This document shows, one piece after another, positions 482 to 17,302 of a stretch of DNA of 19,162 nucleotides. Under the pieces are notes generated by a model, which was given only the letters and a program-made list of their open reading frames with translations, was not told where the DNA came from and did no database searches. The position numbers and the translations under genes were made by a program. The stretch is from a virus. Taxonomy: Duplodnaviria; Heunggongvirae; Uroviricota; Caudoviricetes. The stretch lies in IMG/VR virus record IMGVR_UViG_2734482785_000012, positions 1 through 19,162 of that record; one strand, written 5' to 3'. The stretch's first letter is position 1, and each line of letters starts with the position of its first letter.

Positions 482-510
482 GTGGGTGACGCCCTCACGT
501 CACTGCATTA

Positions 511-538
511 AGAAAGACATTTTTGTCTTTTCTTTTTT
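511..538 (+). terminator. Possible intrinsic terminator (imperfect hairpin plus T-tract)
   Basis: agaaagaca-ttttt-tgtcttttct followed by ttttt. Stem is imperfect. Confidence 0.35.
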
Positions 539-571
539 AAACCTTCTGTTATTTTTTTACCATAAACTTCC

Positions 572-597
572 GGGGCGTTTTTACGCCCCTCTTTTTA
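572..597 (+). terminator. Rho-independent terminator downstream of the porin gene
   Basis: GC stem ggggcg / cgcccc (572-577 / 584-589) with a T-rich loop, followed by tcttttta. Confidence 0.5.
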
Positions 598-621
598 TTC
601 AACTTTGTTAGCTAACGTTAG

Positions 622-1005
622 TCAATTACACCTGCCAACTTCAGGATCCATCTCAAGGCGCACTCCCAATGCCATCAACATCCCCTCGACTATTCCTTCA
701 GCCTTCTGAAGTCTTTTTCCTATATATCCATCAGAACAATGATGCTTACGGGCCAGCGCCATAAACGTCATACCAGCCACATAATAATCTACCAGCAAAT
801 CATGCAAATCACTGTTGTTCTTTTTCAAGCGAGCCATACACCCACAAATAACCATTGCATCATCATCACTACATTGCGGACGTGATTTAACCTTTGGAGG
901 AATAAGCCCCTTGAATCCGGCGGCAATAGATGGCCAGGTAACATCCTCGTGGTTATTTACCACCCATGCTCCCCAACGCTCAAGAACCATCTGAATATCA
1001 CGCAT
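622..1005 (-). CDS. Lambdoid late-gene antitermination protein Q
   Basis: 127-aa ORF. ATG at 1005..1003 is preceded by GGAGG (reverse complement of 1006-1022). The translation ([24 protein letters not shown]...CGCMARLKK...) matches my recollection of Q-family antiterminators of the phage 21/82 (QuuD-like) type. Position is as expected: last gene of the early-right operon, just upstream of the late region. Confidence 0.8.
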
Positions 1006-1247
1006 CAGCGCAACACCTCCTGCACCAGCTTTTCAAACTTTCCAACTCTGGTTTCCAGCTCTGCCACACAGTCCACCAGCTCATCCACCGCTTTTTGTGC
1101 GCGATGTTTCACCTGCATCAGTTCCCTGAGCGCTGGAACCACATCCCGACGAATGGCATCTTTTGTTACACCCGTCTTTTCCAGTTGTTCAGCATGACGC
1201 AACATTTCCTGTGCCTGTTTACGTAATTGCTCAGGGGTAAAAGTCAT
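1005..1247 (-). CDS. Hypothetical small phage protein (about 80 aa, predicted helical/coiled-coil)
   Basis: ORF ends with TGA overlapping the Q start (tgATG). First ATG is at 1247..1245, 12 nt after the helicase stop; the track used an upstream TTG at 1262. No strong SD, so likely translationally coupled. Confidence 0.45.
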
Positions 1248-1258
1248 TGTCTGGTTGT

Positions 1259-2650: not shown

Positions 2651-3525
2651 GCAGCCACACCTCTGATACGAGAACGATAGCTGGGCCAGTTAAACGACAA
2701 CCAGTTGCGTCCCCCGTCTGTGATCCTGTCGGCAATGCGGGGGCTGATGAACGCCCACAACTCTTCCGGTGAAAGGTTGCTGATCAGGATCGTGGGCAAG
2801 ATACTTTCGTACCGGGCATTGATAATTTCCTGCAAAATAGCCATTTCAGCCGCGCTGCCAAACTGAACGCCGACTTCGTCGATGATCAGCAAATCCATTG
2901 ACGCATAATGCTCAATAACTTCATCCGCTGTTTTTTCGCTGTCATTCCGCCAGCAGTTTTTCACAGCACGGGTAAGGCGCATCACATCGGTGATCTCCAC
3001 ACTGGCCAGATAGTTACGGATGATGTGTTTTGCCATTGATACCGCCAGATGATTTTTCCCGGTTCCGCAACTACCAGTCATAACAAGACTGGTACCGTTC
3101 TCCAGCATATCTGGCCAGTTCTCCGCATAGCGGCGACAGGCCGCAAGATTTCTGGCTGCGTCAGGATTAACCTCCAGATAATTATCAAACTCGCAGTCCC
3201 GAAAACGCAGGGCAATTCCGGCGTTATCAGTCAGCTCTTCCGCCTTGATGGACGACAGCCCCATGGTCAAATCGTTGGCCTCAGCGATCAAGCAGTCAGG
3301 GCAGCATGAAATTTTTTCTCTGTCCTCGCCATTGCGATCGCTCCACACCAGTATATGCGTATGGTATTTACCATGTTTTTCGCAATACCCGTGACCTTCA
3401 CGCATCAGGCAGGAACGATAAGTCCATGGCTTTTCGCCCTTCTGAGCAAATGCAATCTCTGCCCGTAACTCATCCATTCGCGCCTGTAGTCTTGTTTGTT
3501 TCTCACGCTGGTTAATCGTCATCAT
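2647..3525 (-). CDS. DnaC/IstB-like AAA+ helicase loader with N-terminal Cys-rich (zinc-ribbon-like) region
   Basis: Walker A MTGSCGTGKNHLA and Walker B LLIIDEVG. N-terminal C-x-n-H and CCPDC motifs. Likely start is ATG at 3525..3523, preceded by GAGGTG overlapping the stop of the O-like gene; the track used GTG at 3534. Confidence 0.8.
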   Translation of the reverse strand: MMTINQREKQTRLQARMDELRAEIAFAQKGEKPWTYRSCLMREGHGYCEKHGKYHTHILVWSDRNGEDREKISCCPDCLIAEANDLTMGLSSIKAEELTDNAGIALRFRDCEFDNYLEVNPDAARNLAACRRYAENWPDMLENGTSLVMTGSCGTGKNHLAVSMAKHIIRNYLASVEITDVMRLTRAVKNCWRNDSEKTADEVIEHYASMDLLIIDEVGVQFGSAAEMAILQEIINARYESILPTILISNLSPEELWAFISPRIADRITDGGRNWLSFNWPSYRSRIRGVAA

Positions 3526-3535
3526 CGCTGTCACC

Positions 3536-4462
3536 TCAGAATGTCAATTTGTCACTGGATTTACCGAATTTGTCAGACATGGCTCCCAGGCCAGCCAGGA
3601 CATCGACCTGTCGCTGTCGCCCACCTCCGGGAGCGGCTGGCTGTTGCCAGAAATCTTCGAAGTGACGATCGGGTCCAAAGAACGTCGCAGCCTGCTTCAC
3701 GAACTGTGTGCCGGTATTTCCTGTAGCACGTACCCAAGCGGCATAACGTCTCACACCATCAAGCATGGTCTCCGGTTTTATTCCCTCCCTGAGACGGGCT
3801 TTCCAGGCTTTGAAGGCTGCCGACTTGGAATTACCACCAGCACGTTTGGGATATTCCTGCCAAGCCTGTTCAAATTCCGGTGAATATTCCTGTCGGGCAG
3901 AGCGCGCTGGTGCAGACGCGTCAGCGGATGCGCCAATATCTTGCGGATCATGTTTTGAATTTACTTGCGGATCATGTTTTAAACCTTGTGGATCTGGGGC
4001 CAGATTCTGAAGGGTCAAAACCGTTTTTTTGCCAGAATCTGAAGGGTCAAACACACCTGAACATTCAGATTCTGACGGGTCAAATTTTGAAGGTTCAGAT
4101 TCTGACGGGTCACGTAATACTGAAAGTCTGCGTTGCTGTTTCAGTTCAGCGACCTTATCCCGCTCCGTTCTGGCAAGCTGCTCAAGCCGATCAGCATTCA
4201 GATGATAAAGATTGGACGTATTACGATTACCTTTGCGACGTGACTGACGCGTCAGCCAGCCATCAGCCTCCAGCTCTGAAATTGCCGTTCTTACTGTGCT
4301 TTCTCCCAACCCAAGCTGTCGGCATATTGTTTCAACACCGGGATAACACACCCCGTCATCATTCGAATAATCAGCCAGACGCGCCATGATCATCAGCTTT
4401 GCACCTTTGACTCCATACGCGGCACATGCATCCCAGACGTTACCGAGAATTTTGCTACTCAC
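3536..4462 (-). CDS. Replication initiator (lambda O-like position) with N-terminal helix-turn-helix and internal repeats
   Basis: 308-aa ORF with GTG start preceded by GGGAGG. N-terminus is HTH-like (GESTVRTAISELEADGWL). The central region has peptide repeats (DPSESEPSKFDPSESECSGVFDPSDSG; KHDPQVNSKHDPQD) encoded by the DNA iterons. Sits immediately upstream of the loader and helicase. Confidence 0.65.
   Translation of the reverse strand: MSSKILGNVWDACAAYGVKGAKLMIMARLADYSNDDGVCYPGVETICRQLGLGESTVRTAISELEADGWLTRQSRRKGNRNTSNLYHLNADRLEQLARTERDKVAELKQQRRLSVLRDPSESEPSKFDPSESECSGVFDPSDSGKKTVLTLQNLAPDPQGLKHDPQVNSKHDPQDIGASADASAPARSARQEYSPEFEQAWQEYPKRAGGNSKSAAFKAWKARLREGIKPETMLDGVRRYAAWVRATGNTGTQFVKQAATFFGPDRHFEDFWQQPAAPGGGRQRQVDVLAGLGAMSDKFGKSSDKLTF
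3941..4113. repeat. Putative phage origin of replication: iterons inside the initiator gene
   Basis: Four copies of cagaWtctgaMgggtca at 4001-4018, 4033-4050, 4066-4083 and 4096-4113 (spacing 30-33 bp), each containing the palindromic tcaga/tctga. Upstream are two copies of ttgcggatcatgtttt (3941-3956, 3965-3980) plus a degenerate third (3986-4001). Confidence 0.6.
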
Positions 4463-4682
4463 ACGGCACCTCCCAGGCGTTTAAACATTTTTCCGGACTG
4501 AAACACCGCCAGAGGGTAACTGATGGTGTAGTTACGCCCCAGTAATTCACACACAACTTTCTGGCTTTCGATACTGACCAGACAAACCCGCAGAACGTGA
4601 CCATTGCTGGTGGTGAACCACTGCCCCACACGGGGCAACGGTTGTATCGGTGATACAGAGAATTCACAACGCGACGAATCAT
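4455..4682 (-). CDS. Hypothetical small protein (75 aa, Trp/Cys-rich)
   Basis: ATG at 4682..4680 preceded by GGAGGTG. Stop overlaps the initiator start by 8 nt. Confidence 0.45.
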   Translation of the reverse strand: MIRRVVNSLYHRYNRCPVWGSGSPPAMVTFCGFVWSVSKARKLCVNYWGVTTPSVTLWRCFSPEKCLNAWEVPCE

Positions 4683-4873
4683 GGACGCACCTCCGCCGTA
4701 GTTACGTATTTAACCGGGCTACCTTTCATTGAGATGGTTTCACACATCTCTGCCGCTTTGCGTTCCGCCGTTTTTCTGGATTTATAGCGGCGGTGCCAGA
4801 CAGATGTATCTGTGCGAACTGATACATCGTTTCTGTATTCCGTTGTGGAAATAATAATTTCGTAACTAATCAT
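4679..4873 (-). CDS. Hypothetical small protein (64 aa)
   Basis: ATG at 4873..4871 preceded by GGGAGG, with near-identical start context to the next gene (tcATGgacgcRcctcc). The track began at an upstream ATG at 4888 that lacks an SD. Confidence 0.4.
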   Translation of the reverse strand: MISYEIIISTTEYRNDVSVRTDTSVWHRRYKSRKTAERKAAEMCETISMKGSPVKYVTTAEVRP

Positions 4874-5232
4874 GGACGCGCCTCCCATTGATTACGGCGG
4901 AAAGCGGTATGACTGAGGCTGTTTTCTGCCTCATGGAATGCTTCAATGCAGCTCTCGTAGTACCGCATTGTGCGCAGACTTAACCCAAGCTGAAGCATCA
5001 TCAGGCCATCAAGGGTGATGTAATAACCACGCAGAGAATCACCATAGATGTGATAAGTGCACGGTATGAAATTGCGGGTAAAAAACTCGCGCGAGCAGTT
5101 CAGATACTCGATTTTGTCGACGATGTTCTGGTGCATGCGCTTAAAGTGGCAGGCAACATGCAGGGAGAAAATAACAGCTTTGCAGTTGACGACTTCGATT
5201 TTGAGGAATGGGGAAGTTGGGACTGTAGCCAT
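4870..5232 (-). CDS. Hypothetical protein (121 aa from the ATG at 5232; the same frame stays open to an ATG at 5532, giving 220 aa)
   Basis: ATG at 5232..5230 is preceded by GGAGG and the codon usage looks coding (TTC, ATC, AAC, GAA). The N-terminal extension 5233-5532 is GC-rich with rare codons, and its start lacks an SD, so the longer model is uncertain. Confidence 0.4.
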   Translation of the reverse strand: MATVPTSPFLKIEVVNCKAVIFSLHVACHFKRMHQNIVDKIEYLNCSREFFTRNFIPCTYHIYGDSLRGYYITLDGLMMLQLGLSLRTMRYYESCIEAFHEAENSLSHTAFRRNQWEARP

Positions 5233-5556
5233 GATGGCAGCCTCCGTATGCAATGGATAACTTCCACCACCGGAGGTTCCAAGCTCGCTGGTGGCGGACT
5301 GAACAGGGTTGGAACGACCGGCGCATACGGAAACCGGCGAGCCTTTCGGCTCCCCTGCCCAGCCCACCATAATTCTGGCGTGCGTGAGCGCGGACGATAA
5401 AAAAGACGCTGGCGCGTCGTATATCGCCGTATGCAATTCCGAGGTTCCAATCCCGGCACCCGCTTTATAAGGTGCGGAGACAGTGTAGCGTCCCGAAATT
5501 GCAGAATCAATATTTAGGCTTGAAACATTCATATGCTTACTGGTATTTTTACTAAC

Positions 5557-5647
5557 GCAAATGTTCTTGGATGTTACTGGCTTACTTCTTTTGTGAAGTT
5601 GCCTTTACTAACGTTGAGCGAGCCGGGTCACTCCCCGGCTTTTTTTC
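5557..5647 (+). ncRNA. Putative short antisense RNA (lambda oop-like arrangement) ending at a plus-strand intrinsic terminator
   Basis: Plus-strand hairpin agccggg-tcactc-cccggct (5621-5640) followed by tttttt (5641-5646); no plus-strand gene ends here. Candidate promoter ttgaaa (5520-5525), 18-bp spacer, tatttt (5544-5549). Predicted RNA of about 90 nt, antisense to the Rha 3' end and the intergenic region. Confidence 0.3.
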
Positions 5648-6395
5648 ACCGCTGCCAACCAATAACCTGAAATAACCCCATTTTCGGGTGATACCAGCGA
5701 GTCCCTCGCGGTTCTACTTCCTCCATAACCCGATAAAAAGCAGCCATAAACGGTTCCACAGCAACAATTGCGCGACGTGACAACAATCCGTCCGGCGTCA
5801 TGAACTCATGTGTGTCTGTAGGAATTTGATAGGCGTTCACCAGATTGCGGCATTTATCATCTGACAAACCGGTTTTCGCTTTCAGTTGGCGATATCCGGC
5901 ATAGCCCTCACGAATGGTGCCCTTTTTGATTTGCTCAACTGTTTCGGCAACGTGGCTGACTTTTTCTTCCACCTGAGTGATCCGTTTCTGCTGACGAACA
6001 GCTTCAAGAGCCATCGCAGCAACCATTTCGATTTCGCTCATTGGTTTACGGATCTGTTCTTCCAGTTCGCGCCAGCGATCTACCAGGCGAGCAGTGAATT
6101 CAGGACAGAGCTGTGCGACGACAATGATGCTGTCGCGCTTACCTTGTTCTCCTTCAAACAGGTAATGCTCATATTGAACTTTAAAACCTAAGTTATTGAT
6201 TCTTTCGGAAACCTCAATTTGAGGAGACCGGACAACGCCACCTTTGGCTAATGTTTCAATAGTGCGTTTCACATTGTCATGACGTTTACCCACCAGCTCT
6301 GCAATTTCAACGCTGGTCATGGATACTTTGCCGTTAAAAATTGCGGTGTTCACTACCATCTCCTTACGGATAAATTCTTTTAAAATTCCGCACAT
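5646..6395 (-). CDS. Phage regulatory protein, Rha family (N-terminal Rha domain plus C-terminal domain of unknown function)
   Basis: Translation contains the Rha-type motif VEIAELVGKRHDNVKRTIETL. True start may be an internal GTG or ATG near 6353-6359, which is preceded by AAGGAG; the ATG at 6395 lacks an SD. Confidence 0.65.
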   Translation of the reverse strand: MCGILKEFIRKEMVVNTAIFNGKVSMTSVEIAELVGKRHDNVKRTIETLAKGGVVRSPQIEVSERINNLGFKVQYEHYLFEGEQGKRDSIIVVAQLCPEFTARLVDRWRELEEQIRKPMSEIEMVAAMALEAVRQQKRITQVEEKVSHVAETVEQIKKGTIREGYAGYRQLKAKTGLSDDKCRNLVNAYQIPTDTHEFMTPDGLLSRRAIVAVEPFMAAFYRVMEEVEPRGTRWYHPKMGLFQVIGWQR

Positions 6396-6472
6396 TCGTA
6401 CTTGTTGGTGTCGAACCTTTCTTCAGTTATCCTTTTGATCCCTATAAACAAAAGAACCAAAGGAGGTTCGAC

Positions 6473-6940
6473 ATGACTTTAAAATCAGTTCACAAGCTGC
6501 TAAAAGAGCATCTTTATACTCTGTATTCGGTTTTGCCTGCGTCCACGAAAGCAATTGAACTTCGAAATCGAACTAGTTGTCGCGCTATTGCTTTAACTTT
6601 TCTTTACCAAGCAATCATGGATTACAAACGCAACCATGCACTGCTAGGCTTATCTTCCCGAGAAACAATCATTCACATGCTTTACGAGGATGCAAAACTT
6701 ACAATTACTGACTTGGAACAAATTCAGCTTTCGCTTGTACTGAAAATTCTTGCTCCCCGTTTTGCGCGAATAGAAGCCAGTGTTTCTCCCGATTTTTCTG
6801 CAATGGTTCAAGACATGACTCAATGGCTTGAAGACAACTCCGAATGGATTTCGAGGTCTCATGAAGCAACTTCAGATCTTCCTGAATTAAAATGGTCAGA
6901 TCTTCCGAACGAGTTGTTTCCACTAACTCTAGGTAAGTAA
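6473..6940 (+). CDS. Hypothetical protein (155 aa)
   Basis: ATG at 6473 preceded by a near-perfect SD, AAAGGAGGT, 7 nt upstream. On the opposite strand to the surrounding early-right operon. Its 3' 236 bp overlap the convergent ORF 6705..7124. Confidence 0.5.
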   Translation: MTLKSVHKLLKEHLYTLYSVLPASTKAIELRNRTSCRAIALTFLYQAIMDYKRNHALLGLSSRETIIHMLYEDAKLTITDLEQIQLSLVLKILAPRFARIEASVSPDFSAMVQDMTQWLEDNSEWISRSHEATSDLPELKWSDLPNELFPLTLGK

Positions 6941-7124
6941 TTTTTTTCGACATATCGTCAAGTACATCTCGTAAACCGTCAGCTAAGGAAGGCAGACGGT
7001 TTACGGCATACCGTAAAGGTCCACCAGAATCCATCTCTTCAGCCGCTTCCGCTAACTCCTTGAGGTAAAGATTTATTTGACGATCAGTCATTCCAGTCGC
7101 ACTAATTTTGATTTTGTTATCCAT
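6705..7124 (-). CDS. Hypothetical protein (139 aa) immediately downstream of cro (cII/YdaT position)
   Basis: ATG at 7124..7122 preceded by GGGAGG. C-terminal part overlaps the plus-strand ORF 6473..6940, so the true 3' end is uncertain. Confidence 0.45.
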   Translation of the reverse strand: MDNKIKISATGMTDRQINLYLKELAEAAEEMDSGGPLRYAVNRLPSLADGLRDVLDDMSKKITYLELVETTRSEDLTILIQEDLKLLHETSKSIRSCLQAIESCLEPLQKNREKHWLLFAQNGEQEFSVQAKAEFVPSQ

Positions 7125-7160
7125 ATTTCCTCCCGCAACCTGCTAAAACAAATCCGTTCA

Positions 7161-7406
7161 TCACTTCTCATCCTCTATATGCGCTAAGCTTGGGTGTGGG
7201 AAAAGTTCTGGTAGATCTGGACGAAATTCATACGCCTGGATCTTTCCGTCGACAGCTGCAACCAATAACGGCACAAATTCGGGTGAAATTTTGTTCTTGC
7301 AGTTAAGCCAATCACAGACTGTTGATTGAGCCTTTCCGCATCGCTTGGCTAAGGCTTGTTGGCTCCCAAGAATCTCAATGGCTTTCTCTATAGCTTTATG
7401 TTTCAT
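7161..7406 (-). CDS. Cro-like HTH regulator (YdaS/Cro family)
   Basis: 81-aa product from the ATG at 7406..7404, preceded by AGGAG. HTH segment LGSQQALAKRCGKAQSTVCDWLN. Divergent from the CI-like gene. The track's longer model starts at 7478. Confidence 0.65.
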   Translation of the reverse strand: MKHKAIEKAIEILGSQQALAKRCGKAQSTVCDWLNCKNKISPEFVPLLVAAVDGKIQAYEFRPDLPELFPHPSLAHIEDEK

Positions 7407-7525
7407 AATCGCATCTCCTATTGACGACATAATATCAATAGGTAATTCGATATTCAACGTTAAACCTAGAAGTTTCATCGGAAAGCCGATAAACTGCCCA
7501 ATATAGAGAGGAGAGGAAGATCACA
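7407..7525. promoter_or_regulatory. Divergent immunity-region promoter/operator (OR-like) between the cro-like and CI-like genes
   Basis: Palindrome cctattga-N10-tcaatagg at 7417-7442. Candidate minus-strand PR: -35 ttgaat (7457..7452), 17-bp spacer, -10 tattat (7434..7429), overlapped by the palindrome. Second palindrome atcgg-aaag-ccgat near 7477-7490. The motif AATAGGTAA recurs at the promoter at 8287-8315. Confidence 0.5.
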
Positions 7526-8218
7526 ATGACATTTTCAGAACGACTTGATTTAGCTATGCGCAACGCAAAATTTACGCAAGGCAGGCTAGCCAAAGAAGTA
7601 GGTATGGCCCAGTCAAGCGTCAATCAATTACTTAACAAAGCCAACGGCTCTAGGAAAACAGTTGAAATAGCAAAAGTTTTGGGCGTTAACCCGGAATGGC
7701 TCGCATCTGGTGTCGGCCCAATGGAAATCGAGACCTCTGCAGACTCACACCAAATACGTAACATTTCAGAAGACAGAGTTACTGATTCGTATGTCGTGGA
7801 TGTTTTAGACATCAGATACAGTTGCGGACCTGGTAGTTATAACTCTGATTTTCCAGACATTGTCAGATCTATAGCGATAGAACCAGGATACGCATCAAGA
7901 GTTTTTGGCGGCAGACCAGCATCAGCAATCAAAGCAATAAACGCCCACGGCGACAGCATGAAAGGCACAATAAACCCTGAGGACTTGGTGTTTGTTGACG
8001 TATCAGTTCGCTCATTTAATGGCGATGGTATATACGCTTTTACATACTCTGGAACATCGCACATCAAAAGGCTTCAAAAAATCAAAGATACCCTAACAGT
8101 GATCTCAGACAATCCAGCTTACAAAGATTGGGCTATCGAACAAGATGACTTCGAGCAACTTCACATTGACGGAAAAGTAATCGTAAGTTGGCCTATGACG
8201 CTACACCGTTTCGCATAA
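7526..8218 (+). CDS. cI: CI-like prophage repressor (N-terminal HTH, C-terminal LexA/S24 peptidase-like autocleavage domain)
   Basis: 230-aa ORF with SD gagaggagagg upstream. HTH segment QGRLAKEVGMAQSSVNQLLN. C-terminal Ser/Lys dyad motifs GDSM and KRL. Confidence 0.85.
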   Translation: MTFSERLDLAMRNAKFTQGRLAKEVGMAQSSVNQLLNKANGSRKTVEIAKVLGVNPEWLASGVGPMEIETSADSHQIRNISEDRVTDSYVVDVLDIRYSCGPGSYNSDFPDIVRSIAIEPGYASRVFGGRPASAIKAINAHGDSMKGTINPEDLVFVDVSVRSFNGDGIYAFTYSGTSHIKRLQKIKDTLTVISDNPAYKDWAIEQDDFEQLHIDGKVIVSWPMTLHRFA

Positions 8219-8240
8219 GCGATAATTATTTAACACCCCG

Positions 8241-8265
8241 CCCACTCCACGAGTGGGTTTTTTTT
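8241..8265 (+). terminator. Rho-independent terminator after the CI-like gene (possibly bidirectional)
   Basis: Stem cccactc / gagtggg with loop cac, followed by tttttttt (8258-8265) and flanked by an A-run on the other side (8266-8274). Confidence 0.65.
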
Positions 8266-8286
8266 GAAAAAAAATCGACAAACCGA

Positions 8287-8315
8287 TTGACACCACAAAT
8301 AGGTAAACCTATTAT
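8287..8315 (+). promoter_or_regulatory. Strong sigma70-type promoter with embedded palindromic operator (PL/OL-like)
   Basis: -35 TTGACA (8287-8292), 17-bp spacer, -10 TATTAT (8310-8315). The spacer and -10 contain the palindrome AATAGGT-AA-ACCTATT (8298-8313). Confidence 0.6.
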
Positions 8316-8364
8316 CATGACATAAGTATCGAACTCACCAAAACAATTATAGAGGATGAGGAAA

Positions 8365-8775
8365 ATGTCATCGTATATGGGGTTACCAACAAATCAACAC
8401 GATGTTCTTGAGAATATTCAACTCTTAGTAGGGGCTGGAGCACTACTGTATAGCAGCAATAACCCAGAGTTAGTTGAACTTGCCAGCTCCATCCTAGCTG
8501 TAACTCAAAAATATAGCCTCGCTGCGTCGCGTTCATGTAAACAAAATTTAGCTATTAATTCACGGAATCGGATTCGTATCCAACGCGAAGCCTGCGGCTT
8601 AACAACCGCCGAACTCGCCAGGCTGCTCGATCTCGATGAAGAAATCATCATCCAGTGGGAGAGCGGAGAGTATGAACCAACTATCAGTATGCTTATCCCG
8701 CTGGCAAATGTTCTTGGTTGCGACCCGATGTGGCTGTTAACCGGTAAACCAACAGCTGAGGATACTTGCGCATGA
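8365..8775 (+). CDS. Helix-turn-helix (XRE/Cro-C1-type) DNA-binding protein, first gene of the early-left transcript
   Basis: C-terminal HTH region GLTTAELARLLDLDEEIIIQWESGEYEPTISMLIPLANVLGCDPMWLLTG. ATG at 8365; the track started at 8356. Stop overlaps the next start (ATGA). Confidence 0.55.
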   Translation: MSSYMGLPTNQHDVLENIQLLVGAGALLYSSNNPELVELASSILAVTQKYSLAASRSCKQNLAINSRNRIRIQREACGLTTAELARLLDLDEEIIIQWESGEYEPTISMLIPLANVLGCDPMWLLTGKPTAEDTCA

Positions 8776-9137
8776 AAAAGTTCGAAAACATAACTGTTCT
8801 CCATGTTGATGAATTTGATTATACAAACCAGGAATTTCTCCCGGAGGTTATAAAAGCAATAGAAGTTGCCGATATAGTGTTTAGAGGAAAGAGAATTGTC
8901 AAAAACAGGCTCGCATGCACTTCAGGAGCAATGACAGAAACAACCTCACAACAAGATGATTATGAAGGCATTTGTCTGGAGCCTGATTCATTTGCGGTAA
9001 ATGTTTATCATTTATTGCATGCAACACAGGTATTACATATGTCCAGTAATCACGAGACAAAAACACTTGGCAGCGAAATTCTGAATTTTGCATGTGAATA
9101 TGCAAAAGCTGCTGCCGAAAAAGAATTAGCACAATAA
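8772..9137 (+). CDS. Hypothetical protein (121 aa), translationally coupled to the HTH gene
   Basis: ATG at 8772 overlaps the upstream TGA. GAGGA lies 9 nt upstream. No motif recognised. Confidence 0.5.
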   Translation: MKKFENITVLHVDEFDYTNQEFLPEVIKAIEVADIVFRGKRIVKNRLACTSGAMTETTSQQDDYEGICLEPDSFAVNVYHLLHATQVLHMSSNHETKTLGSEILNFACEYAKAAAEKELAQ

Positions 9138-9217
9138 CAACAAACATGCCCTGAACGTTTATTACGGTTTTATCGCCGGGGATTGTTACAACCTTTATTC
9201 ATAGAGGGAACTCAGTT

Positions 9218-9331
9218 ATGACTTTCCTGAAAAATAAGGCATCGTATAAAACTGCCTGCCTCATTGCACAACATGGAGATTCTTATCTTCATATAGCCAA
9301 CCTGTATTTGCGCAAAGCATATGGGAGATAA
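9218..9331 (+). CDS. Small ORF (37 aa)
   Basis: ATG at 9218 preceded by agaggg. Stop lies 4 nt before the next start. Too short to judge on composition. Confidence 0.3.
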   Translation: MTFLKNKASYKTACLIAQHGDSYLHIANLYLRKAYGR

Positions 9332-9335
9332 ATAA

Positions 9336-9524
9336 ATGGAAGAAAAACAACAGAACATAACACATGAAAAAGTAAGAGTGTTGCTAACCATTGAAAATGG
9401 GAAAGTAATTTACTCAAAACATCTGTTGGATAATGAATTCGTTGGTTGCATGGATACATTTCTGTGGATGGCAAAAAGAGCTGGCTACACGATTATTCCA
9501 CCAGCAAAGGAGCAAACATTATGA
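9336..9524 (+). CDS. Hypothetical small protein (62 aa)
   Basis: ATG preceded by GGGAGA. Stop overlaps the next start (ATGA at 9521-9524). Confidence 0.45.
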   Translation: MEEKQQNITHEKVRVLLTIENGKVIYSKHLLDNEFVGCMDTFLWMAKRAGYTIIPPAKEQTL

Positions 9525-10102
9525 ATCATTCAGAGTTCCGACCAGTGGTTACGCCACATGGCATAAAAATTGGCAATACAACCATTGATTATGTTGAGGC
9601 CGTACAGCGGCTTAATAATGGTGAATACGATTATCCAAATTCTCACGGTTTAAGAATTATGCAATGTATTGCTGAAGCCGATGATGCCGGATTACTGGGA
9701 CGATTTTCAGTCGATATGAAGGTTGCTCAATGGCGATGGCTGTATGTGACAACATTTATAAATGAAGAGGAAGACAAGAACGGCACTGTTGATATCCCTA
9801 ACGATAATGGAACTACAGCTCGCGCAGTTATTTATAAAGGGAAATATGGTTGTATGGGTATCTACCCAGGATCAATTCGAATTGCCCTGCAAAACCATGT
9901 CGAACGGGGATTTATTGAAAAATATGGCGAAGCTGAAGGCATGGGGCGAGTTCTGTTTCTCTATCAAAAAATGCTCATCGTAGATCCAGGCAATGGCTTC
10001 ATTACCTCTACTATGGGACGCGAAGGACTTGAACTCCTTCTGGATGAAATGATTCACGATCTGAATACTCATGGTATGCCAGAAGCGCCAGTGACACATT
10101 AA
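9521..10102 (+). CDS. Hypothetical protein (193 aa), AT-rich accessory gene
   Basis: ATG at 9521 preceded by AAGGAG (8-nt spacing). The track's longer model starts at 9446. No motif recognised. Confidence 0.55.
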   Translation: MNHSEFRPVVTPHGIKIGNTTIDYVEAVQRLNNGEYDYPNSHGLRIMQCIAEADDAGLLGRFSVDMKVAQWRWLYVTTFINEEEDKNGTVDIPNDNGTTARAVIYKGKYGCMGIYPGSIRIALQNHVERGFIEKYGEAEGMGRVLFLYQKMLIVDPGNGFITSTMGREGLELLLDEMIHDLNTHGMPEAPVTH

Positions 10103-10109
10103 ATATTAA

Positions 10110-10134
10110 GAAGAATATAATTCTTCCGTTTTTT
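10110..10134 (+). terminator. Rho-independent terminator
   Basis: Stem gaagaat / attcttc with loop ata, followed by cgtttttt. Confidence 0.6.
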
Positions 10135-10147
10135 ACTAACCGTTTAT

Positions 10148-10255
10148 ATGAAAAGCAACCGTGAATTAAGCAGAGTAAAACTGCTTTTAATCCTTGCCAC
10201 AGTACTGACACTAACAGAAATCATTATTCTCTTTATTGCGCTGTCAGTCAGTTAA
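10148..10255 (+). CDS. Small hydrophobic peptide (35 aa, single predicted transmembrane helix)
   Basis: Translation MKSNRELSRVKLLLILATVLTLTEIIILFIALSVS. No clear SD, and shorter than the ORF-track cutoff. Confidence 0.3.
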   Translation: MKSNRELSRVKLLLILATVLTLTEIIILFIALSVS

Positions 10256-10278
10256 AAATATCGGGATGCAACAAACCA

Positions 10279-10467
10279 ATGAGATTGTATTTCAGAATAG
10301 TAATTTTACTGGCAATTATCGCATGCATTTACGGACTACTCGTCCCGTTCCTTATATCCATGAAGGATACGGTAGCAGTCATTTCCGGTTTTGCACTGGC
10401 GTTTCTGACCCCGCCCTGCATTTATGCCATTTACAAGGGTCTTTCTTTCACTAAGGATAAAAGATGA
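10279..10467 (+). CDS. Small membrane protein (62 aa, two predicted transmembrane helices)
   Basis: Hydrophobic segments IVILLAIIACIYGLLVPFLI and VAVISGFALAFL. Stop overlaps the start of the SPFH gene (ATGA). Confidence 0.4.
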   Translation: MRLYFRIVILLAIIACIYGLLVPFLISMKDTVAVISGFALAFLTPPCIYAIYKGLSFTKDKR

Positions 10468-11291
10468 AAAAAGTTATTTTTGCTTTAGCCATTGTTCTTC
10501 CGACCATTGGCCTTGTCGGTTGCGATCGCGTTGAACCAGGTAATGTTGGCATTAAGGTAAATAAACTGGGCGACGACAAAGGCGTCGGTGAAGTGGTTGG
10601 CGTTGGCCGCTACTGGACCGGCTGGAATACTGAAGTTTACATCTTCCCGACCTTCAAACAAATGAAGACCTACGATGAACCGTTCAGTTTCCAGATGAGT
10701 GACGGTACAACCATCGGCTATCACATCGGCGTGGCCTACAAGGTTGATCCATCCAAAGTTACCACGGTGTTTCAGACTTACCGCAAAGGCGTGGATGACA
10801 TAACCGATACCGACCTGCGTCAGAAGATCGCCGACGCACTCAACCGACTGGCCAGCAAAATGACCACCGACAAATTTATCGACGGCGGGAAGTCTGAACT
10901 ACTGGATGCAGCTCTTAAAGACATTCAGGAGGAAATGACCCCCATCGGTATTCAGGTAATGAGCCTCTCATATGTGGGTAAGCCGGAGTACCCGTCAACC
11001 GTTATCGACAGCATTAATGCCAAAGTCACGGCGAACCAGAAAACCCTGCAACGCGAACAGGAAGTAAAACAGCGCGAAGCGGAAGCCAACATGTTGCGCG
11101 CGGAAGCTGCCGGACAGGCAGATGCAATTCGCACAAAAGCCCAGGCCGAAGCCGATGCTATTCGTTTACGCGGTGAAGCTCTGCGCCAGAACCCCGGAGT
11201 TATGGAACTGGAAGCCATCAATAAATGGAACGGCATACTGCCGCAATACATGACCAGCGGTGCTAATACACCATTTATCCAGGTTAAATAA
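10464..11291 (+). CDS. SPFH/band-7 (prohibitin/stomatin-like) domain lipoprotein
   Basis: Signal peptide with lipobox LVGC (MKKVIFALAIVLPTIGLVGC). Central SPFH-like domain and a C-terminal Ala/Glu/Gln-rich coiled coil (QREQEVKQREAEANMLRAEAAGQADAIRTKAQAEADAIRLRGEA). SD AAGGA upstream. Confidence 0.75.
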   Translation: MKKVIFALAIVLPTIGLVGCDRVEPGNVGIKVNKLGDDKGVGEVVGVGRYWTGWNTEVYIFPTFKQMKTYDEPFSFQMSDGTTIGYHIGVAYKVDPSKVTTVFQTYRKGVDDITDTDLRQKIADALNRLASKMTTDKFIDGGKSELLDAALKDIQEEMTPIGIQVMSLSYVGKPEYPSTVIDSINAKVTANQKTLQREQEVKQREAEANMLRAEAAGQADAIRTKAQAEADAIRLRGEALRQNPGVMELEAINKWNGILPQYMTSGANTPFIQVK

Positions 11292-11331
11292 CTTATACGC
11301 CCGGCAGGGCGCCGGGCTAAGGAAAGAACAG

Positions 11332-11703
11332 ATGAACACCCAGAATACTCAACAGCAAATAATGAACTATGACCCAAATCTGACGTCGTGCGGACGCATG
11401 GCAAAACAAACCGTTCGATTAACTTTCGGACTATGGGAATACCGCGAAACATTCGAAGTTACTGTCGGTGGCAATCTGACCGGACTGGATGTTATCAGTT
11501 GCGCTATTGAAAGCCTGTACGCAACGCTGCCTTATGAAGAAGTCGAGGATGAGCGCACAGGGGAAACAGATATCATGGCCACCATTAATATTGGCGAACT
11601 GATATGTCAGGATGAAGACCTGTCTGGAGAACTCTGGCTTGCCGGGATGCTTATCTCAGCAGAAATTATCAGTATTGAACCCGCTACAAACATACGGCTC
11701 TGA
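11332..11703 (+). CDS. Hypothetical protein (123 aa)
   Basis: ATG at 11332 preceded by aaggaaag. The track's longer model starts at 11260. Preceded by the GC stem-loop gcccggc-agggc-gccgggc (11299-11317). Confidence 0.5.
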   Translation: MNTQNTQQQIMNYDPNLTSCGRMAKQTVRLTFGLWEYRETFEVTVGGNLTGLDVISCAIESLYATLPYEEVEDERTGETDIMATINIGELICQDEDLSGELWLAGMLISAEIISIEPATNIRL

Positions 11704-11734
11704 AGTTCTCATTATTCAGAGAGCAGGAGAAAAA

Positions 11735-11977
11735 ATGTTCGCTTTGATTAATCAAGGACAACTGTATACCGACAGTGCAGGTTACCCGGTAAAAATTATT
11801 CGCTGCATAAATAACACTGTGTTGTACAGAAGAATGGATGGGCGAACACAGTCGGTAAAACTAAACGATTTTAATGAATTGTTTGAACGGCTCGATCACC
11901 AGGAATACCGACAAATTCTGGCAGAAACAGAACAGGAAACTCATCTGAAGAAATTACGAGCCATGCAAAGGAAGTAA
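11735..11977 (+). CDS. Hypothetical protein (80 aa)
   Basis: ATG at 11735 preceded by gcaggag. The track's longer model starts at 11612. Confidence 0.5.
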   Translation: MFALINQGQLYTDSAGYPVKIIRCINNTVLYRRMDGRTQSVKLNDFNELFERLDHQEYRQILAETEQETHLKKLRAMQRK

Positions 11978-11980
11978 AGA

Positions 11981-12127
11981 ATGAATAAAGCGTTTGAGCT
12001 ATGGGTACGCCAGCGTTACGGCAATCGCTATGACCTGACGCGAGATGTTGACGGTTTCTACTGCCGTGAAATTGTGAAACGAATGTTTGAAGTGTGGTGC
12101 CACTGCCGTGGACTGAATGTTGTGTGA
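11981..12127 (+). CDS. Small ORF (48 aa, Cys/Trp-containing)
   Basis: ATG at 11981 preceded by aggaag, 3 nt after the previous stop. Translation MNKAFELWVRQRYGNRYDLTRDVDGFYCREIVKRMFEVWCHCRGLNVV. Confidence 0.35.
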   Translation: MNKAFELWVRQRYGNRYDLTRDVDGFYCREIVKRMFEVWCHCRGLNVV

Positions 12128-12135
12128 GGTGAACT

Positions 12136-12345
12136 GTGGGGCTGGATTGCGTACCTATATCAACCTACTGCCGCAACGCGGGAGAAACGGTTGATGCCGT
12201 TAACAAACGGATACAAAGAGGAATATGGAAAGAAGGGGTACATGTATTAAAAGTCGACGGGGTTAAAGAACGTTGGGTCGACTTAATGGAGATTACAAAA
12301 TGGGCAAGAAAGAACAAGGATCATTATCTCTCCCCAGAGGAGTAA
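12136..12345 (+). CDS. xis: Excisionase-like DNA-binding protein (Xis position)
   Basis: 69-aa ORF with GTG start preceded by GAGGTG. Winged-helix-like pattern (ETVDAVNKRIQRGIW...VKERWVDLMEITKW). 3' end overlaps the integrase start by 46 nt, as in xis-int pairs. Confidence 0.55.
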   Translation: MGLDCVPISTYCRNAGETVDAVNKRIQRGIWKEGVHVLKVDGVKERWVDLMEITKWARKNKDHYLSPEE

Positions 12346-13472
12346 CTATTCGGCAACATAAAACTGGTAGCACTCTGGTTATCACTTTTACATATAAAGG
12401 GGTTCTGTGTCGGGAGCCCCTCTCCAGAATGGAAGTAAACGCGCGCGGTGTGAAGTACGCCGAGCGTCTGCTGGGAGAAATAAAAAATCAGATTATCGAT
12501 GGTACCTTCGAATATGCAAAATACTTCCCCAACTCCCAAAAGCTGAAGTTGTTCGGGGGAGTGAAAAAAAACAAAAATATAAAATCTTACCTGGATGAAT
12601 ACCTGATTATCTGCCAGAACCGTAACCTGTCACCATCGACAATTAGAGGTTATGAAAAATGCCTGTCGGCGCTGTCAGCATTGCATAAATTTCATGTATC
12701 AGAACTGACACCTGCAGTACTAAAAAACTGGATCGCCAGCAGAAAAACAAAACTGAAAACGATCCGCAATAATCTTTCGTTTCTGCGCAGCGCCATAGAT
12801 GAGGCGGTGACCGATGGTTTGTTAACAATAAATCCTGTCACGCTAGTCAGCGCCAGCCGATATCACGTATTAGACAACACACCAGGCAGTGATGATTACG
12901 AGGTCGATCCTTTTACGCCAGCGGAGACAGCAGCAATCTATGACGCCTGTCATTACCCGGAATGGCGAAATCTATTTCGCTTCGCCTTTAATACCGGGCT
13001 GCGCAGCTCGGAATTGTGCGCATTGCGCTGGACAGATATAGACTTCATCGGCAACACAGCGCATGTCCAGACTGCAAGTGTAGTCGGGGTAATCAAAAGC
13101 ACCAAAACAAAAGCCGGCACTCGCAAAGTACAACTGAACAGCGAAGCGCTGGCAGCTCTTCAGGCACAAAAGCCCTACACGGCGCTAAAAAGCGACTTTA
13201 TATTCAGCGATCCAAAAACTCGCGCCCCTTGGGCAAACGCGGACGCGATCCGAAAAAAAGCCTGGGTGCCGACCCTTAAAAAGGCTGGTGTACGCTATCG
13301 CAATCCGTACCAGACACGCCATACGTTCGCCACTCGGCACATTAGCCAGGGCGTTAACCTGTTCTGGCTTGCTGGTCAGATGGGGCATAAAGGACCGGAA
13401 ATGCTGTTCAGACATTACGGCTCTTACCTTGCAGAATACGATGGAAAAACGGCGATTTCTGCAGCCCCGTAA
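12300..13472 (+). CDS. int: Prophage tyrosine integrase (site-specific recombinase)
   Basis: Catalytic-domain motifs (TGLRSSELCALRW; HTFATRHISQGVNLFWLAGQMGHKGPEMLFRHYGSY with the R..H-x-x-R..Y signature). ATG at 12300; the track used an upstream TTG at 12273. Lies next to the attachment core. Confidence 0.85.
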   Translation: MGKKEQGSLSLPRGVTIRQHKTGSTLVITFTYKGVLCREPLSRMEVNARGVKYAERLLGEIKNQIIDGTFEYAKYFPNSQKLKLFGGVKKNKNIKSYLDEYLIICQNRNLSPSTIRGYEKCLSALSALHKFHVSELTPAVLKNWIASRKTKLKTIRNNLSFLRSAIDEAVTDGLLTINPVTLVSASRYHVLDNTPGSDDYEVDPFTPAETAAIYDACHYPEWRNLFRFAFNTGLRSSELCALRWTDIDFIGNTAHVQTASVVGVIKSTKTKAGTRKVQLNSEALAALQAQKPYTALKSDFIFSDPKTRAPWANADAIRKKAWVPTLKKAGVRYRNPYQTRHTFATRHISQGVNLFWLAGQMGHKGPEMLFRHYGSYLAEYDGKTAISAAP

Positions 13473-13604
13473 CGGCAAAATATTTCAAAATGTTGTACAG
13501 AATCAGGACGTTACAGGGACAGCAATATGTACGTAAAATGCACATAATTCCTTGTTTGAAAAAATAAATCGTTCATATTCAATAAATTGGATTAATCACG
13601 ATCA

Positions 13605-13631
13605 CGGGTTCAACTCCCGCCAGCTCCACCA
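13605..13631 (+). other. ssrA: Attachment-site core: 27 nt matching the 3' end of tmRNA (ssrA); a fragment, not a complete gene
   Basis: cgggttcaactcccgccagctccacca matches the 3' terminus of the E. coli tmRNA as I recall it. Sequence upstream of 13605 diverges from ssrA. Lies between the prophage int and the P4-type integrase. Confidence 0.65.
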
Positions 13632-13796
13632 CTTTTTAGTTGTTTGAAGTTCAATGAAGTCTACTAAGCCCACACAGCACAAGCTCTGCGGGCTTTTTTA
13701 CGTCTATTGTCGTCCAGTGAGAATTGCTGAGAACTACGAGTTATGGCACCCTGAATGGGACCCACTAAGAAGGGTCCAAAAACCGAGGGTCCCAAA

Positions 13797-15026
13797 ATGG
13801 CAAAAATCGCTAAGAAGCTCACTGACACTGAAATCAAAAGCACCAAGCCAGCCGATAAAGAAATCAACTTGTTTGACGGTGATGGTCTGATTCTACGAAT
13901 CGCTCCTTTGGCGAAAGGAGGCAAGAAAAATTGGTATTTCAGGTATGCAGTACCAGTGAGCAAGAAAAGAACCAAAATGAGCCTTGGGACATATCCTCAC
14001 CTTACCCTTGCAAGAGCCAGAGCCTTACGTGATGAATATCTCTCCTTTCTGGCAAATGGTGTTGATCCCCAAATCCATAACAACGATAAGGCGAAGGCAT
14101 TAAAGAGTGCTACTGAGCACACTCTCCAAGCCGTAGCGCGGAAATGGTTAGATGAGAAGGTAAAGACATCAGGTATCTCACAAGACCATGCAGCAGACAT
14201 CTGGCGCAGCTTAGAGAGAAATGTCTTTCCCGGTCTGGGTAATGTCCCTATCAATGAGATCCGACCTAAGCTCTTAAAACAACACCTTGATCCTATTGAG
14301 CAACGAGGCGTATTGGAAACTCTACGCCGTATCATTTCACGTCTGAATGAAATCTTCCGGTGGGCAGCTACTGAAGAACTTATTGAGTTCAACCCGGCTG
14401 ACAACCTTGGTCAAAGATTCAGTAAACCAAAAAAGCAAAATATGCCTGCCCTTCCCCCAAGCGAATTGCCAAGGTTTATGGAATCTTTGACGAATGCGTC
14501 AATCCGGTTGGAAACACGTATGCTAATTGAATGGCAATTGTTGACATGGGTTCGTCCGGGTGAAGCCGTTCGCGCAAGGTGGTCTGATATTGATACAACC
14601 AACAGCATTTGGAACATTCCTGCTGATTTCATGAAAATGAAAAAGCTTCACAAAGTTCCTTTGAGTAAAGAAGCTTTGCGCATCCTTGAATTAATGAAAT
14701 CAATAAGTGGGCATAGAGAATGGGTTTTCCCCAGCATAAAAGCGCCTCTTAATCATATGCATGAACAAACAGCCAACGCAGCTATCATCCGAATGGGGTT
14801 CGGAGGCGAGCTTGTAGCTCACGGTATGCGTTCTATTGCACGAACAGCGGCAGAGGAGTCTGGTAAATTCAGAGCTGAAGTTCTTGAGGCAGCGCTTGCC
14901 CACTCGAAAAAAGATGAAATTATCGCAGCATACAATCGTGCAGAATATCTGATAGAGCGACAGAGTTTGATGCAATGGTGGAGTGATTACGTTCAAGCTC
15001 AAAGATCAAATGCTCTGGTAGCCTAA
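13797..15026 (+). CDS. P4-type (IntA/CP4-57-like) tyrosine integrase
   Basis: N-terminus MAKIAKKLTDTEIKSTKPADKEINLFDGDGLILRIAP is typical of P4-family integrases. Catalytic region has R (VRPGEAVRARW), HGMRS and Y (AAYNRAEY). ATG at 13797; the track's longer model starts at 13755. Lies directly downstream of the tmRNA 3'-end core. Confidence 0.85.
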   Translation: MAKIAKKLTDTEIKSTKPADKEINLFDGDGLILRIAPLAKGGKKNWYFRYAVPVSKKRTKMSLGTYPHLTLARARALRDEYLSFLANGVDPQIHNNDKAKALKSATEHTLQAVARKWLDEKVKTSGISQDHAADIWRSLERNVFPGLGNVPINEIRPKLLKQHLDPIEQRGVLETLRRIISRLNEIFRWAATEELIEFNPADNLGQRFSKPKKQNMPALPPSELPRFMESLTNASIRLETRMLIEWQLLTWVRPGEAVRARWSDIDTTNSIWNIPADFMKMKKLHKVPLSKEALRILELMKSISGHREWVFPSIKAPLNHMHEQTANAAIIRMGFGGELVAHGMRSIARTAAEESGKFRAEVLEAALAHSKKDEIIAAYNRAEYLIERQSLMQWWSDYVQAQRSNALVA

Positions 15027-15064
15027 GTATCAGAATAGCTAATATAATCCTGAAGGTAAAGAAA

Positions 15065-15481
15065 ATGGAAACCCTATTCAAAGTTTTTGAAAAATTTAGT
15101 TCCAGACCACTTTTTTTTATTTTTTTCGGACTCTCACTTTGTGAATTTTTTCAGAAACAATCTGTTCTGATGAATCCATCAGCAGATAACATCGCGAAAT
15201 TATTCGCAGCCATGATATTAGTTGTTTTTTTTACTTGGGGATTTGAATGGCTAATCTTCAAGTTCAATGTAAACCTTGAACCTCATGATCAAGGCGATAT
15301 TGGACCAACAATTGGAACGGCTACTTTAGCTGTATACTTAGTTTATGCCTTTCACTTTCTCAGTGAAAATCCTGAAGCATTAAATTTAAAGTTATTAACT
15401 AACTCTGGCTTTATATACAGCACAACTCTATTATTATTCTCATTAGAATGCATGAAGCTTAGAAGACTTAAACAAAAATAA
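15065..15481 (+). CDS. Hypothetical integral membrane protein (138 aa, 3-4 predicted transmembrane helices)
   Basis: AT-rich. Hydrophobic segments PLFFIFFGLSL, LFAAMILVVFFTWGFEWLIF, TIGTATLAVYLVYAFHFL, FIYSTTLLLFSL. Convergent with the receiver-domain gene. Confidence 0.5.
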   Translation: METLFKVFEKFSSRPLFFIFFGLSLCEFFQKQSVLMNPSADNIAKLFAAMILVVFFTWGFEWLIFKFNVNLEPHDQGDIGPTIGTATLAVYLVYAFHFLSENPEALNLKLLTNSGFIYSTTLLLFSLECMKLRRLKQK

Positions 15482-15552
15482 ACAACATCATTGTGATGAT
15501 AAATATAAAATAGGCATGGCGAAAAAAAATCACCACGCCTAAAATATAATAA

Positions 15553-17301: not shown

Positions 17302-17302
17302 A

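Follow-up and report, generated by a model that had tools for sequence, protein, structure and literature searches.

A five-gene block behind a PL-like promoter in a phiP27-like lambdoid prophage of Escherichia coli: a modular helix-turn-helix regulator and a second copy of its hairpin domain

Introduction

Early-left (PL) operons of lambdoid phages are familiar, and that of lambda itself (N, ral, sieB, kil, cIII, gam, bet, exo, xis, int) has a repressor gene, an operator-controlled leftward promoter, and a series of packed small genes that runs to xis and int. Here we analyse a stretch of 19,162 nucleotides, positions 1 to 19,162 of the IMG/VR virus record IMGVR_UViG_2734482785_000012 (Caudoviricetes), which is referred to below as the window. 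It is a phiP27-like lambdoid prophage of Escherichia coli and has the same architecture, its operator being a candidate one. Our subject is a block of five genes at 8365-10102, which encode a helix-turn-helix (HTH) protein of 136 aa followed by proteins of 121, 37, 62, and 193 aa. The gene content differs from that of lambda, as no lambda PL product has a homologue in the block according to Pfam and PHROGs: lambda N is an arginine-rich RNA-binding antiterminator, whereas the first gene of the block encodes an acidic XRE-type HTH protein with a pI of 4.6. In imm21-type hybrids, N, the first PL gene, is partly part of the immunity module, and the first gene of the block resembles it in this respect.

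The closest described relative is the Stx2e phage phiP27 (NC_003356), in which the genes L10, L08, L07, and L06 are orthologous to those for the HTH, 121-aa, 62-aa, and 193-aa proteins (85-97% protein identity, same order) and are likewise flanked by the repressor gene on one side and by the genes for the SPFH lipoprotein, xis, and int on the other. In the phiP27 record, L10 is called 'helix-turn-helix domain-containing protein' and L06-L08 'hypothetical protein', all noted 'unknown', and the 37-aa gene is not annotated. The two phages differ in their immunity regions (the window cI is 34% identical over a partial match) and in the type of the N-terminal domain of the HTH protein, and phiP27 has a 577-bp two-gene insert at the junction of the HTH and 121-aa genes that is missing from the window. 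Public annotation of every copy of the block is limited to 'hypothetical' or to an HTH or transcriptional-regulator name, and these genes are not discussed in the searched literature that mentions phiP27, a search that did not cover the original phiP27 paper.

Two other kinds of system share features with the block. SinR of Bacillus subtilis joins an XRE HTH to a two-helix domain and the adjacent gene, for SinI, provides a copy of the two-helix domain without the HTH, an arrangement similar to that of our first two genes, except that the domain order is reversed, with the hairpin N-terminal to the HTH in the window. The XRE/HTH type II toxin-antitoxin (TA) systems HigBA, HipBA, and MqsRA and the O157 system paaR-paaA-parE resemble the block in having a prophage HTH gene that overlaps a downstream gene, as well as through a ParE-like domain gene in related operons of other genera. 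They differ in that no toxin domain, conserved pairing, or own promoter was found in the window. A preliminary description of the window, made from its sequence alone, had proposed that the block consists of candidate TA or superinfection-exclusion genes.

In this study, we report a comparative analysis of the five genes and their regulatory region, and we hold with moderate confidence that the block is the promoter-proximal part of a repressor-controlled PL operon of early regulatory and host-interaction genes. The genes themselves have been in the databases as 'unknown' since phiP27 was sequenced; new are the dissection of the regulator into domains, the paralogy of the hairpins, the link between the N-terminal domain and the immunity region, a model of the 193-aa protein without a detectable fold relative, and the reality of the 37-aa gene.

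Results

Conservation and synteny of the five-gene block

The block comprises the genes for the HTH protein (8365-8775; phiP27 L10, phrog_4836), the 121-aa protein (8772-9137; L08, phrog_5451), the 37-aa protein (9218-9331), which is basic with a pI of 9.8, the 62-aa protein (9336-9524; L07, phrog_340), and the 193-aa protein (9521-10102; L06, phrog_1515), all on the plus strand. The gene layout given in the preliminary description was reproduced with the same coordinates: the TGA stop of the HTH gene and the ATG of the 121-aa gene overlap as ATGA, the 62- and 193-aa genes overlap in the same manner, and a gap of 4 nt separates the 37-aa from the 62-aa gene. For the HTH gene, a second ATG is open at 8356, and the 136-aa form is the choice of public annotation. 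The low GC content noted at the outset was borne out as well, with 41.1% in the block versus 51.2% in the replication module (1259-4462). The region 8200-10200 is 93% identical to phage phiP27 and has matches in 347 of 5426 complete E. coli genomes (~6%), chromosomal in every case; the genomes and phages that match the block include Stx2e, Stx2a, and Stx2d converting phages.

The comparison covered 80 IMG/VR viral contig loci obtained by a profile scan, in which the 193-aa protein is 65-92% identical to that of the window (close relatives), and a distant set of 15 loci, 12 from 10 genera (Rahnella, Yersinia, Citrobacter, Phytobacter, Pantoea, Atlantibacter, Raoultella, Providencia, unclassified Enterobacterales, and Paenochrobactrum, which does not belong to the Enterobacterales) and three from metagenome contigs. 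All five genes are real and under purifying selection, with dN/dS values of 0.09 for the 37-aa, 0.14 for the 62-aa, 0.17 for the 193-aa, 0.22 for the HTH, and 0.30 for the 121-aa gene. The order HTH, hairpin (the 121-aa gene or a short form of it), 37, 62, and 193 aa is kept wherever the contig reaches far enough, and the 80 viral contigs with this order carry six different repressor types.

In the distant loci, the 193-aa gene lies within a same-strand run of small genes in 15 of 15 cases. Six of them contain a recognisable cI-like gene, which lies on the same strand as the 193-aa gene and 2.2-3.5 kb ahead of it; in another two, the cI position is taken by an unrelated S24 or HTH repressor gene. 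Downstream integrase genes were recognised in five loci, and 6 of the 15 loci also have the 37-aa gene. Further genes are interleaved among the shared ones, and the upstream neighbour of the 193-aa gene comes from at least five unrelated families. The preserved order, together with the interleaving and the variable neighbours, argues for the backbone of an early-left operon rather than for a movable cassette or for fixed gene pairs.

Modular structure of the HTH protein

The HTH protein consists of a variable N-terminal helical hairpin (~8365-8538) and a conserved HTH core (~8572-8736). Residues 70-124 match Pfam HTH_3 (PF01381) with 44.9 bits against a cut-off of 23 (1e-11), which places the protein, with its HTH_3-type five-helix domain, in the XRE/Cro-C1 family, and a comparison with PDB sequences returned the DNA-binding domains of P22 C2 and 434 repressor (E ~1e-5). 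Across 79 relatives, the 55-residue core has 88% identity between types, and the N-terminal 60-90 residues fall into seven types (N-types), the other types being 17-32% identical to that of the window. Each N-type is paired with a single cI cluster, two related N-types sharing one cluster, so that the N-terminal domain is inherited together with the immunity region. In the DNA alignment with phiP27, a mosaic boundary falls inside the HTH gene, at the junction of the N-terminal domain and the HTH. The C-terminal tails, which may be short, 49 aa long, or an entire second HTH domain, reassort freely with the N-type. The tandem second HTH of some relatives fits a need for two DNA-reading heads, in which case the single-HTH form would dimerise.

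A second hairpin in the 121-aa protein

The 121-aa protein begins with a part under weak constraint, which a disordered linker connects to a C-terminal hairpin (~8952-9125) that, judged by profile similarity, is a second copy of the N-terminal domain of the HTH protein. By hhalign, residues 61-118 of the 121-aa protein align with residues 1-58 of the HTH protein at a probability of 97.5% (E 6e-12); a single family, phrog_4587, matches residues 1-57 of the HTH protein and residues 57-121 of the 121-aa protein; and in tblastn comparisons the hairpin is 36-45% identical to N-types 3 and 4. The AlphaFold2 (AF2) model shows a weak N-terminal part, a disordered linker at residues 49-67, and a confident two-helix hairpin at 71-120, with a predicted local distance difference test (pLDDT) score of 77-93 in the hairpin. 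A fold search returned generic hairpins only, and a comparison of the 121-aa protein with PDB sequences gave nothing meaningful. Pfam detects no SinI domain in either hairpin protein at E values up to 0.1; the shared hairpin is a separate family (phrog_4587), with SinI/SinR offering an analogy of mechanism only.

A hairpin open reading frame (ORF) lies between the HTH and 37-aa genes in 78 of 79 loci. About 30 related loci have only a 66-aa version, and some NCBI records give a 68-aa form that starts at an internal Met. Selection is relaxed in the first 50 codons of the 121-aa gene (dN/dS 0.59 versus 0.22 in the C-terminal part), and this relaxed and poorly modelled N-terminal part, together with the 66- and 68-aa forms, makes the true start of the gene uncertain.

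The ATGA overlap of the HTH and 121-aa genes is present in 13 of the 79 loci and interrupted in the remaining 66, where the spacings are 129, 186-204, 577, or 1392 bp. In phiP27 and E. coli E423, the 577-bp insert lies exactly at the junction (phiP27 6200-6780; E423 ~9575-10152) and is flanked on both sides by the direct repeat CATGAAAAA. It contains an 80-aa plus-strand ORF (phrog_23054), with a start that overlaps the stop of the HTH gene, and, on the minus strand, the small ORF L09. These sequence comparisons show the junction to be an insertion hot spot, of which the window has the empty form. Since the overlap is present in only 13 of 79 loci and replaced elsewhere by insert variants, we regard it as incidental. 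At the same junction, one IMG/VR contig (L036) has a 176-aa fusion in which the long tail of the HTH protein is joined directly to the 17 C-terminal residues of the 121-aa protein (…SREALNFACEYAKAAAEKELAQ); judging from its sequence, the fusion evidently formed by deletion.

Promoter, candidate operator, and terminators

Upstream of the block are a Cro-like gene (7161-7478, minus strand, with the ATG at 7406 as probable start) and a gene for a LexA/S24-type cI repressor (7526-8218). The latter is followed by an intrinsic terminator (8240..8266, plus strand; stem 8240-8258 and a U8 run) with a folding energy of -12.6 kcal/mol (z -2.8). Just past this terminator, we confirmed the PL-like promoter that had been proposed earlier, a sigma-70 promoter of the form TTGACA-17-TATTAT (8287..8315, plus strand) that matches 11 of 12 consensus positions. 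It is overlapped by a palindrome, ATAGGTAAACCTAT (8299-8312), which is a candidate OL operator and whose half-site ATAGG(T) reappears in the cI-cro intergenic region (7417-7468). phiP27 belongs to another immunity type, and its two regulatory regions (cI-cro and upstream of the HTH gene) share an 11-mer of their own, CCAAAGTATCA. The palindrome on the promoter and the recurring half-sites suggest that a lysogen does not express the five genes. In Pfam, the Cro-like gene falls into the family YdaS_toxin (PF15943, 54 bits); its position marks it as the Cro of the phage, and the word 'toxin' in the family name is no evidence for a toxin here.

From the PL-like promoter, the string of plus-strand genes runs as far as those for excisionase and integrase (window positions 12273-13472), so that same-strand genes lead from a promoter just after the repressor gene to xis and int, as expected of a lambdoid early-left operon, and the layout from cI through the promoter to xis/int is identical in phiP27 and E. 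coli E423. No further promoter was found by a consensus scan for either overlapping gene pair, which leaves the PL-like one as the sole promoter found. Overlaps of 4 nt and tight spacing are the general pattern across these operons, and the stop-start overlaps of the block have little specific meaning for this reason. The genes that follow the block encode a membrane peptide (35 aa), a membrane protein (62 aa), and an SPFH lipoprotein; after them come several small genes (named DUF5406, DUF4222, and hypothetical in E. coli E423), xis, and int. The proposal that the cluster ends at a terminator held in part: a hairpin does follow the 193-aa gene (10110..10134, plus strand), with a 7-bp AU-rich stem at 10110-10126 and then CGUUUUUU, but its fold is weak, with an energy of -4.9 kcal/mol (z -1.4) that is matched by 17 of 200 shuffles, and it was not called by the consensus terminator scan. 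Rfam shows no RNA family within the block.

This regulatory arrangement bears on the proposal that the five genes are superinfection-exclusion or lysogenic-conversion genes, expressed from the prophage and protecting the lysogen. In lambda and P22, the interval from cI to the recombination genes contains rexAB, sieB, and similar exclusion genes, and the block corresponds to them in position and is AT-rich relative to the replication module. However, exclusion and addiction genes must act in the lysogen, and the suggested silence of the block, whose sole detected promoter is overlapped by the operator-like palindrome, would speak against both. Exclusion proteins of the SieA/SieB, Sim, Imm, or Cor/Llp type are membrane-located or lipoproteins, whereas none of the five proteins has a membrane segment, their highest 19-residue Kyte-Doolittle average being 1.47, compared with 1.9-2.9 for the downstream 35-aa peptide, 62-aa protein, and SPFH lipoprotein. 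In addition, the matches to PADLOC are to generic HTH models, and the genes persist as a conserved backbone in different immunity types and genera. The exclusion reading of the preliminary description is, on these grounds, not supported, and we consider it very unlikely.

The three genes just downstream are better candidates for conversion or exclusion functions than the five genes of the block. This membrane module (10148-11291) encodes the 35-aa hydrophobic peptide, the 62-aa membrane protein, which belongs to phrog_1130 ('moron'), and the SPFH/Band-7 lipoprotein (phiP27 L05), and the genes of the latter two overlap by 4 nt.

The 37-, 62-, and 193-aa genes

The exact sequence of the 37-aa protein was found on 837 contigs, and homologues with 41-76% identity are encoded in the same operon in Citrobacter, Phytobacter, an unclassified Enterobacterales genome, and two metagenome contigs. 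This gene lacks a coding-sequence entry both in the RefSeq record of phiP27 and in E. coli E423 as annotated by PGAP. In phiP27, L07 is annotated with an upstream extension across the end of the 37-aa gene, and the upstream in-frame start used there is blocked by a stop codon in the window. The 62-aa protein matches phrog_340 at 5e-25, and nothing meaningful was found for it among PDB sequences; its gene lies within 6 nt of the 193-aa gene in all 80 close relatives. A possible anti-repressor domain, raised by one weak PHROG match (6e-4) to the C-terminal part of an anti-repressor PHROG, was rejected for the 62-aa protein, as its profile gave a probability below 1% against the window's Rha, Ash, and the ORF6N family.

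For the 193-aa protein, the AF2 model has an alpha/beta fold (pLDDT 89, predicted template modelling score 0.84) with a disordered C-terminal tail, and no fold relative was detected in PDB or BFVD. Neither the protein nor its 40-sequence family profile found anything meaningful among PDB sequences. Grouped at 50% identity, the family recovered by an exhaustive profile search numbers only 135 clusters, most of which are single-domain proteins of 190-210 aa, and it has the tail motif G-x-P-x-x-P-V-x-H, in which the terminal histidine is nearly invariant. The conserved tail is possibly a docking peptide.

The lambdoid left operon is the usual site of the recombination module, and the position of the 193-aa gene would suit a divergent single-strand annealing recombinase that replaces bet, erf, or recT, as would a beta-beta-beta-alpha element at residues 89-135 of the model. 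The evidence makes this highly improbable. The structural match is rank 13 among generic helical matches and has 59 aligned residues with 3% identity, Rad52 and Red-beta are absent among the 60 matches listed, the family profile finds no annealing protein among PDB sequences up to E 10, and no recombinase family of Pfam is matched. The 193-aa protein was rejected as an annealing protein of the Rad52/Sak/Red-beta kind, there being no sequence or fold match to the core.

The three genes may also be viewed as an anti-defence or host-takeover cassette, whose 37-, 62-, and 193-aa products, possibly joined by the 121-aa protein, would inhibit functions in host defence, repair, or division early in infection, with the HTH protein as an Aca-like regulator. 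Lambda Gam, Ral, and Kil act early from the same operon, and Aca proteins regulate anti-CRISPR loci. The genes of the block are early-left genes behind a strong promoter, their products are small soluble proteins without the signature of an enzymatic family, the fold of the 193-aa protein is without a detected relative and is combined with a conserved disordered tail of docking type, and the left arm of these phages has no recognisable gam, kil, or recombination genes. Anti-defence genes are, however, usually patchy and fast-evolving, whereas the 37-, 62-, and 193-aa genes evolve slowly (dN/dS 0.09-0.17) and have wide synteny. We regard such a cassette as a tentative possibility, which overlaps with our favoured explanation instead of opposing it.

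Search for toxin-antitoxin and defence functions

In agreement with the preliminary description, in which no product was recognised, none of the five proteins has a characterised homologue in searches of Pfam, NCBIfam, PHROGs, PADLOC, and PDB, ordinary phage proteins included; the family scans returned only generic HTH domains and PHROGs of unknown function. The homology and structure searches that it had called for with the 121- and 193-aa proteins uncovered the paralogy of the hairpins but no characterised relative for either protein. No toxin, antitoxin, or defence family of Pfam, NCBIfam, or PADLOC was found for the 121-, 37-, 62-, and 193-aa proteins, and the HTH protein gave sub-threshold generic XRE matches only. 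Among the defence models of PADLOC-DB 2.0, the HTH protein matches the generic models RmrA, HTH_VI, and capH through its HTH region, and the other four proteins match none.

A TA or abortive-infection module in the block would have the HTH or the 62-aa protein as antitoxin and the 121- or the 193-aa protein as toxin. XRE HTH proteins are common as antitoxins, and our HTH protein has weak matches to HipB, MqsA, spr1629, and PADLOC HTH models. The stop-start overlaps of the HTH/121-aa and 62/193-aa pairs and the constant closeness of the latter genes point in the same direction, as do operons of Citrobacter, Yersinia, Phytobacter, and Pantoea that have a ParE-like domain gene (PF24732, E 7e-19), sometimes directly after a 62-aa-like gene. 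These antitoxin matches, however, are far under the family cut-offs and concern the generic HTH only, no recognisable TA toxin family (RelE/ParE, HipA, MqsR, Doc, PIN, etc.) is present among the five proteins in Pfam, NCBIfam, and PADLOC, and a remnant of a ParE-like gene was searched for in the window and not found. An adjacent cognate pair is also missing: the HTH/121-aa adjacency is broken in most relatives, and the 62/193-aa pair is constant only in the close E. coli lineage, since the upstream neighbour of the 193-aa gene varies across genera and 62-aa-like genes are also found away from ParE-like and 193-aa genes. With no autonomous promoter found for either pair, the TA reading is improbable, and this part of the preliminary description was not upheld.

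The ParE-like genes of the four genera named above, and of the metagenome contig L085 (3327-3554), encode proteins of 72-75 aa; those of the prophages are in loci L087-L092 (for example, L091 4370-4591). They are usually located between genes for 115-125-aa and 137-aa proteins, just upstream of the 193-aa homologue. In three loci the ParE-like gene directly follows a 62-aa-like gene, a pairing with the 62-aa family that does not hold throughout. Searches of the window for remnants of the ParE-like, F2, and F3 genes of these related operons found none.

Other features of the window

Rfam identifies a C4 antisense RNA (83 bits, 5287-5374) and an isrK Hfq-binding small RNA (59 bits, 5399-5475) on the minus strand, inside or beside an Ash/Rha-family gene (4870-5532), which points to RNA control of the P1/P7 immI type or the IsrK type over an anti-repressor-like module in the rightward operon. 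A Rha-family protein of the window (5652-6056, minus strand) and ORF6N-domain proteins (for example, L090 4888-5637) that are encoded just downstream of the 193-aa homologue in other genera have C-terminal halves with 71% identity, an instance of domain shuffling among anti-repressor-like proteins. Beyond the prophage integrase, the window has a second integrase gene (13755-15026), after which comes an island of 34% GC with two large minus-strand genes, whose products of 588 and 572 aa have the domains Response_reg_2 (PF19192) and HATPase_c with HEF_HK (PF19191), respectively. The region 13755-19162 looks like a separate integrated island with a gene pair of the conflict or defence type.

Discussion

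The reading that we favour is that of a repressor-controlled PL operon, of which the five genes form the promoter-proximal part. The strong promoter just past the cI terminator, with a repressor-type palindrome on top of it, would keep the five genes silent in the lysogen, and they would be switched on after infection or induction. The first gene would then supply an XRE-type DNA-binding regulator, in which the HTH core is constant and the N-terminal hairpin changes with the immunity type, and the second a free copy of the hairpin domain. As the hairpin is likely a module for self-association or partner binding, the free copy may co-assemble or compete with the regulator and tune its DNA binding, in the way that SinI acts on SinR; this competition step, which is drawn by analogy, is a conjecture that we advance with low confidence, well below that in the general picture. 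The third to fifth genes would encode tightly packed soluble early proteins that act on host or phage proteins in early development, and the 193-aa protein may dock via its conserved C-terminal tail.

Several observations weigh against parts of this explanation. The three types of free hairpin mix with the seven N-types without co-variation, which is awkward for a specific heterodimer and differs from SinR/SinI, and in some distant relatives a longer hairpin protein without an HTH follows the repressor gene, so that the domain may act without DNA binding. As regards the target site of the HTH protein, no convincing inverted repeats were found in the conserved intergenic regions. The case for cI as the repressor is built on short repeats of a half-site: when up to three mismatches are allowed, the complete 14-mer is not enriched in the window over shuffled sequence, with four matches versus 1.3 expected and 15 of 200 shuffles reaching four. 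Between cI and the HTH core there is no homologous sequence for recombination, and the link between N-type and cI type could reflect physical linkage alone. Finally, the biochemical roles of all five products are ones that we infer.

The link of N-type to cI type may have a functional basis, or be due to linkage only. A bolder, rather unlikely version of the former is that the variable N-terminal hairpin is a second determinant of immunity specificity, each type recognising its own repressor or Cro and being coupled to a universal HTH, for example by serving as a type-specific anti-repressor or co-regulator that makes the lytic decision final after PL has fired, with the free hairpin as a buffer. 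If this were true, the immunity regions of this lineage would hold three matched specificity elements, not two.

In these phages, low GC content and stop-start overlaps behind PL are normal traits of the operon and do not mark TA or exclusion genes. The 193-aa family and the 37-aa protein offer clearly delimited subjects for functional study. Should the regulator and the hairpin protein act in the lysis-lysogeny decision, they would have a bearing on the induction of toxin-carrying prophages.

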